From positions 18,793 to 82,792 of the forward strand of contig CASFUZ010000001.1 in NCBI GenBank assembly GCA_949298065.1: a stretch of DNA of 64,000 nt, in the 5' to 3' direction. This document shows positions 20,001-20,594 of this stretch, in pieces. Source of the stretch: an uncultured Pseudomonadota bacterium. GTDB taxonomy: Bacteria > Pseudomonadota > Alphaproteobacteria > RF32 > CAG-239. Each line of letters begins with the position of its first letter. The first letter of the stretch is position 1. Position numbers and translations under genes: made by a program. Below the pieces are notes generated by a model. That model saw only the letters and a list, made by a program, of their open reading frames with translations. It was not told where the DNA came from and did not search any database.

Positions 20001-20594
20001 AGGAGAAGTTTCCGGAGAATTTGGAGCTTTTGTCCCCACATATTTAGCTAAACTATCGTCAGGTTCGGAATATGGTACAAAATAGATTGCATTACCGCCG
20101 CCGCCACCGCCGCCACCGGCTAAGAGGGCGACCAAACCTCCGGCGAGTAAGATTCCGCCGATAATCCAAGTGCGTTTAGCAATAATGAATTCGCCTTCAT
20201 TAAATTTATTGTAAGCTTGTCTTGGGGTATCATCAATGTCAGCGGTACAGCTTTGCTCCATAAAGCGGTCATATTGGCGCTGAGGGATGTTTTGGATACA
20301 AGAAGAATGGGGATTTGCACCGCTAGCGCGGAAAGCATTATAAGCTGTACAATCATTTTGCAAAATAGCATGGCACAAGCCCGTATTTCCGAAACGATCT
20401 CTGGAGTCTATATTTAAGCCGCGTTGAACGGCTGCGCGAAGCGCTCGGACATTTCCGCTTGAGGCATAAGAATACATCTGCGCCAAGCTAATCGGCGGCA
20501 AACCGGCAGCTAAGCTCGCAGGAGAATAAGCAAAACAGAACGCAGCTAAAGATAGTAGCGTGATTGCTTTTCTAAATAAAAACTTAATCTTCAT
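11010..20594 (-). CDS. Giant (3194 aa) type Va autotransporter-like surface protein: signal peptide, ankyrin-like module, hydrophobic/poly-Gly segment, roughly 2700-aa repetitive Gly/Ser/Thr/Asn-rich passenger, C-terminal beta-barrel translocator
   Basis: Sec signal peptide (MKIKFLFRKAITLLSLAAFCFAYSPASLAAG). The passenger carries hundreds of short GxxYGMYG / NNGTI / TNxGxI repeats typical of beta-helical passengers. The last roughly 300 aa alternate hydrophobic beta strands and end ...GMGYKF, a beta-domain terminus. It is a single uninterrupted ORF. Confidence 0.8.
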   Translation of the reverse strand: MKIKFLFRKAITLLSLAAFCFAYSPASLAAGLPPISLAQMYSYASSGNVRALRAAVQRGLNIDSRDRFGNTGLCHAILQNDCTAYNAFRASGANPHSSCIQNIPQRQYDRFMEQSCTADIDDTPRQAYNKFNEGEFIIAKRTWIIGGILLAGGLVALLAGGGGGGGGNAIYFVPYSEPDDSLAKYVGTKAPNSPETSPYKPITYFADNNKTITNQADGAQTNDFTVSNNSSVVVPNANGGSELQQLVNLIDLNGNILDYAVYLKVGMKARNNSSVINGSEDAGSNAPMITIGEASVGMAADDYSQATNYGTLKILAQNGAFGMIAGNHSVATNQSGDINLQFKGFNNQDTIIGMYADTYSSILNFGNITGNTIDVSGSTGGSGTSGDTTTTANAGTIIGMEVRTINEVPYPSLTPAATASNNANITLNAQSDSAAIKTSLIGMGGYLDQDFLDGTKLIRRASSLYLTNTLNGNISLNYTLSGTGTYAPDENTLLMGNGGIVGMRADAKTTALNEGNISLLLSTGVDNAGAGMQAVHGGTISNENIISVVGGMGNYGMLSVRGQGNNSEIDALAPTLTNAETGIIEVTSTDGFGMASFNGGKVTNNGTITMQNDSTGMRTNTGILTNSEGANITLQNSGAGMVLKSGDPTTDSQTSGSDSADGSGDTSTGESGAAIKQNLTNAQAINNGTITIYNADGAQGIFIEDGTATNNGTNGAGIFVSNTSRVPTEASYGIQAQAGNVINNGTIDMNVLVSTDGSTSVDSYGIFSDSANITNTADGSITFHKRGTGIATTSGYVQNLGNITLEQGGTGISSSNGDVLNATDASIIINDNDTAASTGIVAQAGKITNNGTITITNGNGATGIKAGLLVDNNNIIDLSGRNVTGIELTGQDAIANNNATININSTYSGENNYGIKASASAVNANITNNNNITLTGSVNSPSYSQQGYGISIAGGTATNLGTITFDNMYGWGMYTTAGTIKNDNGTILMNAGGTGLYGNGADALMVNSGDITIDVPDNDNNSISYGIYADGGAIANNTADANIYINSNASTASMLTQAFGIYVNQGEGTNLGNIFINGSNSTGMAYAGSDTTGSLTNMQNAVINLTGSNNIGMTSAGATAKNNGTINIGTIDDEGTLTASSDSIGMQTTGGAVFNQGVINVNSNDSVGLQSDAETGTITNNGTINVSETATNSYAILSNSGTAINGVSGIINSNQSNTDLMKSLGGSLTNYGSLNINSDLSNVNAMHIQGTGTATNAADATINVGTGNGATGSNNIGMFVDGGSVVNEGNINVYTQDSYAIKLINNTGDLVNNGTISIMEGADGSVALYAQNGDIYNKGTINMFGEGILMQAINGQTYNEGTIALGDNATGIVVSGTNNADNSGTLSVNGNNSTAFLIQGTGTVTNQQNGVINVLGSNSYGFKADDGFAATLVNNGEFTLEGDGSNSFAMYGQSANITNTATIDVLQSSSTAMFTSVGKLLNTGNITLDGENSVGLSVQGGGSAIHGNEDGTDTEDTKTYIAVNAAGAQGMSASGSGSLTNNALINVNASGAYGMYGSGGSSLTNNDNIYLNGGGYGMYATGSVTNAQNKNNISATINSGLNGSLYALYSTSSGSVTNALNATISLSGNPNAGNQIFGVYTNGGSANNNGTININGSNMSAMGIGTSGGTLNNVASGVINLSGSNLTGMNVSGGNAYNLGDINIGTDNSAAPNSVGINVTGGNASNQGDINVNSADSVALQSNGGSVTNIGIITISDNATGSLAFLSNSGNAINASTGTVNLNQSDTDIMKAMGGNITNNGTLNTAVSASNVNAMHVANGGNATNTKTINVGTSTAASGTNNVGILIDGTAASTASSNSGTISVYSDDSYGVLLDNQNASFTNSGTISVDGGASGSIALYAEQGKITNSSSGVINMSASGVLMQTRNGTIINQADIDLSFADSIIMNVTGSGTAQNSGKLTVDTVDSYAMKVADGVTATLTNTGTINLNNGATGSYAMYGANANITNSGNISVLQSGATALFTKVGSLVNNGSITLNALNSIGLSISGSGGTAENASGGSIILSNSGKAMSVSGASEITNNGTIQINANNAYALFASNGGTATNNKAISIGDSYSGSYAMYGTTNSTLKNNSNITVGQASSAAIYATDSTITNAGTLTVNSAQNNAAGIYATNTTGGGNITNTGSIDVNYKGSTSSDNVYGIYANSNSGITVSNTNTIDVSSDKSNAYGIYSSSAVQQNNRGNITVRGLSAYGMYGGVINTTDGQISVTGTGTGASYGIFGTGGNVSNQSDIIVNAAQGYGINMNGSGTLTNSGDITLNLTGSGTSYGLYGGSLTNGGVIKVTGTASGTANGTAYGIYSTGGTVQNSSEIDVSAEQGYGIALNGSGTATNKERITLTGTDSGTSYGMYGSNGASLVNSAGGTISVNAANATGMYATGDGTLTNSGNITVTGMGNGTSYGMYGGVINTTGGKISVTGSGAGYSYGIFSNGNYVSNMSDIIVSAAQGYGINMNNGGILTNGGNINLNLTGNGTSYGLYGGGLTNDGALTITGSGNGISYGMYSTGGTVLNRNNISVSDGQAYGIVLNGSGTATNSGTITVTGKDSRTSYGMYGSNGASLVNSAESSISVNGTTANATGMFVTGSGTATNSGTITVTGSSSGTSYGMYASSGASLVNAAGATINVNGTNAVGMYATGSGSSITNYGNIILNGASISTEYPGASSSTNPDTDNTGCTAAGCGNFIQVANGATFVNSGQVISTSALNFNLMSAANSGTFVLAPKGSYIAPEHSGPVTASADIVMEGNKTTYVNEDSFIGTDAGLKLSSGSYLFDAYLVTNEDGNQDVVMIMKEFSDVVDNSSVANFLTNNYTLGTNMDMYSILKSAPDASSFTAAVAGQMGLDIVPSFAKQNMDIVKAVNRHMSQTLFANQSAQDVRAMFDFVYDYREQNDVDMLSGYEDEALSAYAMFDRKYNSNFRYGLGVSFTRYESDYDNGSERDEIIAQVLTPLIYTTEGLKAIAMPRLGIGWGEYNRRADGFDNKADTKNYYYGITNEVRKEFDLGAVVLEPTAEFNVLGMYQDSTKEKNGLEVKSANNLSVEGGLGLYARKSFSIKDENDLTLRAGGTWYHEFNNPYQAARARIAGMVGSYQMDSYDAERDRGILTFRMDYKHEGFDFYFEANKFLEESDGYALSAGMGYKF
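12480..13980 (-). repeat. Tandem intragenic repeats of about 610 nt (about 200 aa), at least 2-3 diverged copies, inside the autotransporter passenger
   Basis: The near-identical stretch agagttaaccagagaagcccc...accatacataccata occurs at 12733-12790 and 13341-13396. ttaataccataaccttgcgcggcattaacaataatgtcagac occurs at 13687-13728 with a diverged copy at 13069-13110. The protein-level segment repeats are roughly 85-90% identical. Confidence 0.7.
14830..17360 (-). repeat. Large intragenic duplication of about 1 kb per copy (about 330 aa each, roughly 60% aa identity) in the passenger domain
   Basis: Protein segments GVINVNSNDSVGLQSDAETGTITNNGTINVSETATNSYAILSNSGTAINGVSG... and GDINVNSADSVALQSNGGSVTNIGIITISDNATGSLAFLSNSGNAINASTG... 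align over more than 300 aa. Coordinates are approximate (around 16360-17360 and 14830-15830). Confidence 0.5.

Follow-up and report, generated by a model that had tools for sequence, protein, structure and literature searches.

Type V secretion is usually described in terms of a signal peptide, a passenger and a beta-barrel, without a hydrophobic part between them. The lipidated autotransporters NalP and SphB1 possess a lipobox, and the acylated Cys at position +1 anchors the N-terminal end of the passenger. In intimin (type Ve) a LysM domain is kept in the periplasm, as is the C-terminal half of CdiA (type Vb) until receptor binding. The extended signal peptide region (ESPR) was reportedly thought by Szabady et al., in 2005, to hold the precursor transiently at the inner membrane. 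Described here is a 3,194 amino acid (aa) autotransporter encoded on the reverse strand of a 64,000 nucleotide stretch of DNA from an uncultured alphaproteobacterium (contig CASFUZ010000001.1, positions 18,793 to 82,792; hereafter the window), in which an ankyrin (ANK) module, an uncharged hydrophobic helix (H2) and a run of eight glycines lie between the signal peptide and the passenger.

Two other described proteins are of interest in this context. VacA of Helicobacter pylori has, at its mature N-terminus, a hydrophobic Gly-rich stretch with three tandem GxxxG motifs that later spans a membrane (PMC10821523). AnkB of Pseudomonas aeruginosa is described as periplasmic in the title of Howell (2000), as cited in PMC12754779. 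A literature search found no paper joining autotransporter, ankyrin repeat, passenger and signal peptide in the present architecture, and nothing relevant on transmembrane (TM) helices or polyglycine in autotransporter passengers. The word 'ankyrin' is missing from a 2012 census of autotransporters, in keeping with a preliminary description of the locus, made from the letters of the window, which had called ankyrin repeats atypical of such passengers.

Parts of the N-terminal head

The stretch 20070..20594 (-) encodes aa 1-175 of the open reading frame (ORF), and the first 167 residues, termed the head, consist of a predicted Sec-type signal peptide, the ANK module, a linker, H2 and Gly8, in that order (Table 1). 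The autotransporter premise of the preliminary description was sound: PF03797 scores 76-77 bits (cut-off 26) on the C-terminal 290-396 aa, a match that emerged when C-terminal pieces were scanned alone and is unlisted in the scan of the full-length protein, and the sequence ends ...AGMGYKF, with an aromatic last residue. On the basis of this score and this ending, the gene is taken to be a genuine classical autotransporter.

The head holds a genuine, divergent ANK domain. The string originally singled out as ankyrin-like, NVRALRAAVQRGLNIDSRDRFGNTGLCHAILQND...ASGANP, is present at aa 48-95. Ank_4 scores 23.1 bits on the isolated aa 31-122 (cut-off 22.7), falling below the cut-off, at 21.6 and 17.1 bits, when the module sits in longer pieces; among 45 family modules, matches at E<=0.01 were obtained to Ank_4 in 26 and to Ank_2 in 12. 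When a profile of the 45 modules was compared with PDB sequences, the 60 matches listed were solely ankyrin proteins and DARPins (best 1.9e-32), the best alignment spanning profile positions 9-67, almost two repeats. An AlphaFold2 model of the module, based on a 45-sequence alignment, contains three helix pairs (predicted local distance difference test, pLDDT, 84.6; predicted TM-score, pTM, 0.76). With Foldseek, ankyrin-repeat proteins made up all 50 of the best 50 matches in the PDB (probability 0.99-1.00, TM-score 0.44-0.60), headed by AnkB (9iq8; TM-score 0.54, identity 22%). The TPLH consensus of ANK repeats is replaced by T-G-L-C, in which the invariant Cys74 occupies the His position, a departure that leaves the ANK fold unaffected. 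The ankyrin assignment, for which failure in profile searches had been named as part of a refuting outcome, therefore survives profile searches, structure prediction and fold comparison alike, whereas the accompanying label 'eukaryote-like' is unneeded, given that periplasmic bacterial ankyrin proteins exist and that the best structural match is AnkB.

The cysteines of the module follow a regular pattern. Cys74 and Cys99 lie 25 residues apart, 91 of the 92 members have an even number of Cys in the module, and Cys82 is always accompanied by a Cys in the 110-122 region, both being present in the window protein (WIN), in P0016 and in the distant member P0075, as if distant lineages had acquired the two jointly. 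The invariant pair probably forms a periplasmic disulfide, with one or two disulfides per module in all; since the cysteines are read in this way, an oxidising compartment is suggested for the ANK module. A second apparently exported ankyrin protein is encoded elsewhere in the window (26546-27526 (-), 326 aa, with a signal-peptide-like N-terminus); it has clear Pfam matches to Ank_4, Ank_2 and Ank (E 5e-15), and an ORF of the same length is found in two of the orthologous loci described below, L001 and L003.

The second string picked out in the preliminary description, WIIGGILLAGGLVALLAGGGGGGGG, is present at aa 143-167. Over the 3,194 residues, the Kyte-Doolittle 19-residue mean exceeds 1.6 in two stretches only, at aa ~10-28 and 141-160 (peak 2.07), and H2 is more hydrophobic than the core of the N-terminal signal. 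The helix begins with Trp (WW or WWW in relatives) and is Gly/Ala-rich, with the pattern W-x-x-GG-x4-GG. The uncharged stretch ahead of the Gly run has a median length of 20 residues in the family (interquartile range 19-21), as long as a membrane-spanning helix, and an 18-residue core in the window protein. Naive sums of approximate Hessa 2005 scale values, added without position terms, give -0.01 for the best H2 19-mer of the window protein, at the hydrophobic end of the family, and a median of +1.76 kcal/mol over the 92 members (>+1 in 65, <0 in eight); the median minimum outside H2 in family proteins is +7.2. Across the same 92, the 15 residues after H2 carry an average net charge of -1.8 and the 10 before it a mean of 0. 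Basic residues before H2 are unconserved, with the KR of the window protein replaced by TTT, AAA or DNS in relatives ('STTTW', 'SAAAWW', 'DDDNSLWWW').

A run of eight glycines would be expected 5e-4 times in this protein at 14% Gly. The tract had been suggested to vary in length, and does so: it is G5, G8, G8 and G8 in close orthologues, G7 in one relative and G4-G11 family-wide, a run of at least four following the helix in 71 of the 92 relatives (median 7, range 4-11). A first AlphaFold2 model, covering aa 1-195 with seven sequences, had a pLDDT of 52, with H2 and beyond below 40, and was used for secondary structure only; it predicted, at low confidence, a helix at aa 124-132 in the linker. 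Ten diverse H2 segments had no match at E<=10 to Gly-zipper Pfam families, including Rick_17kDa_Anti.

The signal peptide was called on heuristic layout criteria (basic, hydrophobic, small-x-small), with cleavage probably near aa 29-30. The small-x-small motif stands no more than 12 aa before a conserved L-x-P in 89 of 91 ANK-head family members, and the first 12 aa have a net charge of +2 or +3 in most. An ESPR was considered and rejected, as the signal peptide extends to only ~30 aa and Ank_4 was the sole N-terminal Pfam match (aa 1-175 and whole protein, E<=1). A lipobox was likewise rejected: aa 1-40 contain a single Cys, Cys20, which belongs to the hydrophobic core (FCFA), and the signal lacks L-x-x-C at its end.

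The head in related proteins

Full-length orthologues are present at loci L001-L003, in metagenome-assembled genomes (MAGs) of three uncultured Alphaproteobacteria. They are 2,523, 2,118 and 2,372 aa long, against 3,194 aa for the window protein, and the surrounding ORFs match the window in size and order. Close homologues, 45-84% identical, all have the same order of head parts. When the head and barrel were searched by tblastn for paralogues in the window and L001-L003, only the gene itself and the three orthologues were found. The contig collection had no entry identical to the window protein.

A much larger family emerged when a profile of the head was searched against 1.84 billion representative proteins. 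There were 1,002 matches at E<=1e-3, the lower end of which takes in generic ankyrin proteins, 226 protein clusters at E<=1e-10 and 58 at E<=1e-30. Among the best 150 matches, 92 are 1,000-4,291 aa long and carry the head at their extreme N-terminus; the PF03797 barrel was found in 25 of 28 sampled C-termini of these long relatives, and the last residue is F, W or Y in 86 of the 92. The family consensus runs from a signal ending A-x-A through L-x-P-x-s-F-x-x-m-Y-x-l-A-x-x-G...RG-l-N-I-d... and G-d-T-g-L-C...G-A-n-p-x-h-p-C to a variable linker, W(W)-x-x-GG-x4-GG-x2-A-l-A and then G4-G11. All members are metagenomic, the named ones being 'hypothetical protein' entries of Alphaproteobacteria or Pseudomonadota MAGs, and a model of the head is absent from Pfam, NCBIfam and precomputed annotations, weak ANK matches aside. 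The preliminary description was thus correct as to the order of signal peptide, ANK-like module, TM-like helix, Gly tract and passenger, which is kept in the three orthologues and the 92 long relatives; the arrangement it had treated as a peculiarity of one gene, however, marks a large family.

The ANK-helix unit is also encoded on its own. Seven of the best 150 match clusters (P0059, P0093, P0097, P0098, P0102, P0115 and P0160) are proteins of 143-160 aa consisting of a signal peptide, the ANK module and a hydrophobic helix, and ending where the Gly run of the fused forms starts; P0097, P0059, P0093 and P0102 are complete genes (Table 1). These stand-alone forms retain the invariant residues of the family, and their nearest relatives are differing autotransporter clades. 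Naive Hessa sums are negative for five of the seven, whereas eight of the 92 fused forms have a negative sum (Fisher p = 3e-4). Most simply read, ANK plus helix is a unit that would be able to act alone, as a membrane-tethered periplasmic protein, and its helix would be attenuated when a passenger follows. The existence of stand-alone genes of ~150 aa strongly supports the view that the unit is older or more general than the autotransporter fusion, as far as comparison of sequences can tell.

The passenger of the window protein may be beta-helical, to judge from its composition and from weak BigA/RadD similarities. BigA_beta is sub-threshold in this protein at 20.3 bits (cut-off 24.3) and, in an NCBIfam scan, RadD is negligible (18 bits, cut-off 3500) and AnkY and AtoC are weak. 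The passengers of relatives carry precomputed Pfam matches to BigA_3rd and BigA_4th, and to BigA_beta too, by which the family's passengers are grouped with BigA-type adhesins. Long internal duplications are present in the window passenger (11883-20093 (-)), and passenger length varies by over 1,000 residues among the orthologues. In many relatives, Cys-rich modules resembling epidermal growth factor (EGF) directly follow the Gly tract, the Cys total reaching 114 in P0109 and 121 in P0116; in these two proteins, and in P0152, P0140 and P0149, they form long arrays between the poly-Gly and the beta-helical passenger, an unusual feature in proteins of a class reported to tolerate disulfide-bonded domains poorly. 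Most of the family's gene calls from metagenomes end within the passenger, and P0003 and P0013 are chimeric assemblies whose junction lies in or close to the head. In one relative of 53% identity (L004, contig ERZ1310681 NODE_707, 2001-2516 onward), an in-frame TAA replaces TAT after ...GGGGGKKHHY, and the passenger frame resumes past it (FPPNDSF...); this stop may be a natural truncation, a pseudogene or a sequencing error.

The window gene is divergent to a DUF2157 and GDYXXLXY gene pair, which also adjoins the 53% identical relative in L004. The stand-alone P0059 (L012) is similarly divergent to such a pair, its DUF2157 protein being 33% identical; the gene 3' of P0059 is unrelated to that 3' of the window autotransporter, leaving the shared neighbourhood one-sided. 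The pair was rejected as a general functional partner, since it is absent beside P0052, P0075, P0069 and P0097. P0097 (L008) lies directly upstream of an ABC-transporter gene, an 80% identical copy of which lies directly downstream of the 1,743-aa autotransporter P0069 (L016). Two genes past the 3' end of the window autotransporter is an OprB-family carbohydrate porin (84 bits; 8908-10137 (-)).

Table 1. Positions of the autotransporter, its parts, its divergent neighbours and complete stand-alone relatives
Feature	Position	Strand	Basis or remark
Whole gene, classical (type Va) autotransporter, 3,194 aa	11010..20594	(-)	single ORF; ATG at 20594, stop at 11010-11012
Predicted Sec-type signal peptide, aa 1-~30 (MKIKFLFRK, AITLLSLAAFCFA, YSPASLA/AG)	20505..20594	(-)	basic start, 13-residue hydrophobic core, small-x-small
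Ankyrin module, aa 31-122	20229..20504	(-)	two ANK repeats (aa ~39-97) and a third helix pair as C-terminal cap
Cys74, His position of ANK 'TPLH' (here T-G-L-C)	20373..20375	(-)	Cys in 92/92 members
Cys82, clade-specific extra pair with Cys116	20349..20351	(-)	co-occurrence among family members
Cys99, H-P-C motif, probable disulfide partner of Cys74	20298..20300	(-)	Cys in 92/92 members
Cys116, probable partner of Cys82	20247..20249	(-)	co-occurrence table
Linker, aa 123-142, conserved R125-x-A127-Y128	20169..20228	(-)	invariant in close homologues; 'r.ay' in family consensus
H2, uncharged Trp/Gly-rich helix, aa 143-159 (WIIGGILLAGGLVALLA)	20118..20168	(-)	hydrophobicity peak of the protein
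Poly-Gly tract, aa 160-167, (GGN)8	20094..20117	(-)	GGT GGC GGC GGT GGC GGC GGC GGT
Passenger, aa 168-~2904	11883..20093	(-)	Gly/Asn/Ser/Thr-rich composition, internal repeats, BigA-like
C-terminal autotransporter beta-barrel domain, last 290 aa	11013..11882	(-)	PF03797 match
DUF2157 membrane protein	20736-21923	(+)	divergent to autotransporter
GDYXXLXY protein	21926-22309	(+)	divergent to autotransporter
Stand-alone P0097	L008 3001-3483		complete gene, TGA TAA end
Stand-alone P0059	L012 1991-2470		complete gene within contig
Stand-alone P0093	L011 297-752		complete gene within contig
Stand-alone P0102	L013 248-679		complete gene within contig

Topology of the helix and fate of the head

Both flanks of H2 are likely to be extracytoplasmic, given the canonical signal present family-wide, the invariant and even-numbered Cys, and the passenger or EGF-like modules downstream. 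Because of this, and because no later hydrophobic segment could restart export, it is very unlikely that H2 finally spans the inner membrane. Its marginal hydrophobicity, its helix-breaking Gly tail and the lack of positive charge behind it, where the flank is acidic, suggest selection against stopping in SecYEG. H2 would hence be a membrane helix so attenuated that it slips past SecYEG, and would serve as neither a second signal peptide nor an anchor in the inner membrane. The preliminary description had offered a second membrane anchor and an extended signal region among the possible roles of the hydrophobic stretch; both, the former as regards the inner membrane, are disfavoured by the canonical N-terminal signal across the family, the invariant even Cys and the passenger and EGF-like modules after the helix, and the basic residues before the helix are unconserved.

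The pace at which the parts of the protein change bears on the fate of the exported head. In a comparison of the window gene with its three orthologues, for which dN was relied upon because dS was mostly saturated, dN was 0.03-0.08 for the ANK module, 0.02-0.06 for the linker and H2, 0.008-0.056 for the barrel and 0.15-0.33 for the passenger, 3-5 times that of the N-terminal module. Among these four orthologues the pace of the ANK module therefore resembles that of the barrel. In the family as a whole, 93% of 3,655 pairs show greater similarity in the ANK module than in the barrel (mean identity 47% vs 29%), a comparison biased by the gathering of the family with an N-terminal profile. In addition, between the window gene and L001 or L003 the barrel-coding 3' end (11013-11882) has a dS of 0.17-0.36, and the 5' head (20118-20504) and passenger a dS above 1.2, so that the gene looks mosaic, as might result from recent recombination or conversion of its 3' end.

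The mechanism tentatively preferred, though speculative, is that the head serves as an envelope-side tether of the passenger's N-terminal end. The Sec signal peptide would export the N-terminus; the ANK-H2 unit would pass SecYEG and its Cys pair be oxidised in the periplasm; and the unit would then stay on the envelope side as a tether or holdfast, with the ANK module binding a conserved endogenous partner and H2 sitting in or at a membrane. The poly-Gly hinge and the low-complexity spacer that follows would lead out to the surface-exposed passenger, so that the autotransporter would be held at both ends. This tether is preferred because the ANK-helix unit persists as stand-alone genes without a route to the surface, because the head evolves like a membrane-embedded housekeeping part and unlike an exposed tip, because H2 keeps a strict spanning length, and because autotransporters tolerate rigid or disulfide-bonded domains poorly (PMC3521207).

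The readings with which the tether competes differ in where they leave H2. Were H2 a true stop-transfer anchor in the inner membrane, with the signal cleaved, the ANK module periplasmic, H2 oriented N-out/C-in and the remainder cytoplasmic, a passenger of ~2,700 residues and an outer-membrane beta-barrel would be stranded in the cytoplasm. The naive insertion energy of ~0 and 18-residue uncharged core of the window H2, the Lys-rich stretches after the helix in some relatives (LSSGGKKKKK in P0017) and the stand-alone forms, which very probably have exactly such an N-out/C-in topology, are points in its favour, but the barrel is under strong purifying selection, to judge by its dN, and is present in 25 of the 28 relatives sampled, Cys-rich EGF-like modules follow the helix in relatives, the family median hydrophobicity is marginal at +1.76 and the downstream flank is acidic on average; a stop-transfer anchor is accordingly hardly credible. 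H2 has a somewhat better, though still slim, chance of being an internal export signal or part of a processed pro-domain, either oriented N-in/C-out and cut by signal peptidase at A-x-[S/A/G] before GGGG, or released by a periplasmic protease cutting the poly-Gly, such that the mature passenger would begin at or after the glycines. The junction in most members is indeed [A/L]-x-[A/S/G] followed by Gly, the downstream flank is acidic, as exported proteins are early in their mature part, the first signal has a less hydrophobic core than H2, poly-Gly is a plausible scissile linker, glycyl-glycine endopeptidases exist, and in L004 a natural variant stops right after GGGGGKKHHY. Cleavage by signal peptidase, however, requires a cytoplasmic ANK module, in conflict with the canonical signal and invariant even Cys, and for this reason, together with the zero mean net charge and unconserved basic residues ahead of H2, a role as an internal signal is unlikely. 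An internal translation start before H2 was rejected because relatives have L, V or I in place of Met112, and the best conservation in the protein would hardly be expected of a pro-domain that is discarded, unless it acted as an intramolecular chaperone.

A stronger competitor, although still on the unlikely side, is a surface tip of the VacA kind, in which the head would be secreted last through the barrel to the distal tip of a beta-helical stalk, where the ANK module would bind a target and H2 would act as a membrane-active or oligomerising peptide on a host, prey or vesicle membrane, with the Gly tract as its hinge. The N-terminus of the passenger is exported in classical autotransporters, and the H2 composition, Gly/Ala-rich and marginally hydrophobic, is like that of membrane-active peptides. 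The 32-residue uncharged Gly-rich N-terminal stretch of VacA passes Sec and later forms membrane channels (PMC10821523). The EGF-like modules after the Gly tract of relatives suggest that disulfide-containing segments are secreted in this family, and Cys74 and Cys99 of the ANK module are only 25 residues apart. Set against this, H2 is preceded by a folded 90-residue domain, which it would have to carry across the target membrane in order to span it, and it has GG pairs in place of tandem GxxxG; the head is among the slowest-evolving parts of a protein with a fast passenger, which would be unusual for an exposed tip; and the stand-alone ANK-helix genes keep the same invariant residues without a surface route.

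Several points also weigh against the envelope-side tether itself. Three of its elements, namely the signal peptide, the disulfide and H2 export, are inferred; the saturated dS, the biased family comparison and the approximate Hessa sums noted above count here too; and the window H2, with a sum of ~0, is predicted to stop transfer roughly half of the time. To our knowledge there is no machinery that puts an alpha-helix in the outer membrane, nor any that closes an autotransporter barrel around a retained N-terminal strand. The EGF-like Cys-rich modules are presumably secreted, so the family may tolerate disulfide-rich segments and the ANK module may exit too. Finally, the stand-alone P0097 may be a decaying remnant, since its identity to the P0069 head is 56%, against 80% for the neighbouring ABC transporters, and its three Cys are an odd number. 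A bolder form of the tether, which is rather improbable, would have these proteins as doubly anchored, trans-envelope autotransporters, the disulfide-locked ANK module and H2 being a built-in stop for outer-membrane translocation. The N-terminus would then stay in the periplasm, lie at the inner membrane or cross the outer one, the poly-Gly thread would share or skirt the barrel and the passenger would be displayed as a loop; a later trigger might release or deliver the head.

Relation to known type V proteins

More than 200 protein clusters depart alike from the usual type V layout, placing a folded, apparently disulfide-bonded domain and a membrane-length helix before a passenger of up to ~4,000 residues. 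The conserved helix is a real topological puzzle for type V secretion, unexplained by the textbook route. If H2 passes SecYEG, the family offers natural data on the limit of hydrophobicity before stop-transfer, and the stand-alone forms supply built-in controls; a head that stayed in the envelope would represent a new way to anchor, or to pause the secretion of, a giant adhesin, and a new tool for the study of secretion intermediates. The family may also be a major surface structure of unstudied, uncultured Alphaproteobacteria known only from metagenomes.

In its features as read from the DNA, the window gene is a type Va member, and not an ESPR-type protein, a lipoprotein, a VacA relative or a Pfam glycine-zipper protein. 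With BigA-like type Va autotransporters it shares a predicted Sec signal, a very long, repetitive, Gly/Asn/Ser-rich passenger, a PF03797 barrel and a terminal aromatic residue; it is unlike them in having an ANK module, an uncharged helix of TM length and poly-Gly between the signal and the passenger. The likeness to VacA is that a type Va passenger has, close to its N-terminus, an uncharged Gly-rich stretch that forms a helix and has to get through Sec without stopping there. H2, however, comes ~110 residues further into the chain, with a folded domain ahead of it and poly-Gly after it, and has a leading Trp and GG pairs; the sequences of H2 and VacA showed no relationship, and since H2 lacks the features of a VacA-type segment the resemblance is one of analogy.

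Similarly, the head and the ESPR are both N-terminal features special to very large type V proteins, but an ESPR is a ~25-residue extension before the basic region of the signal, whereas here the signal is of ordinary length and the hydrophobic element comes after a folded domain. NalP and SphB1 likewise keep a type Va passenger attached to the membrane by a hydrophobic anchor at its N-terminal end, although the predicted cleavage site of the window protein, YSPASLA/AG, lacks a Cys. AnkB resembles the head in being a small exported bacterial ANK domain, and the stand-alone genes for signal peptide, ANK module and helix look like membrane-tethered versions of it; it differs in the 22% identity, in that the window gene has no katB-like neighbour, in the fusion of the ANK module to an autotransporter and in the invariant Cys pair. 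The type Ve proteins and CdiA set a precedent for retaining a domain of a type V protein in the periplasm. In type Ve, however, the barrel precedes the passenger, and CdiA uses a separate TpsB, whereas here the barrel is C-terminal in the same chain, as a result of which a retained N-terminus would be a new topology; the doubly anchored form, if true, would be a new type V topology and the natural counterpart of the stalled intermediates used experimentally.

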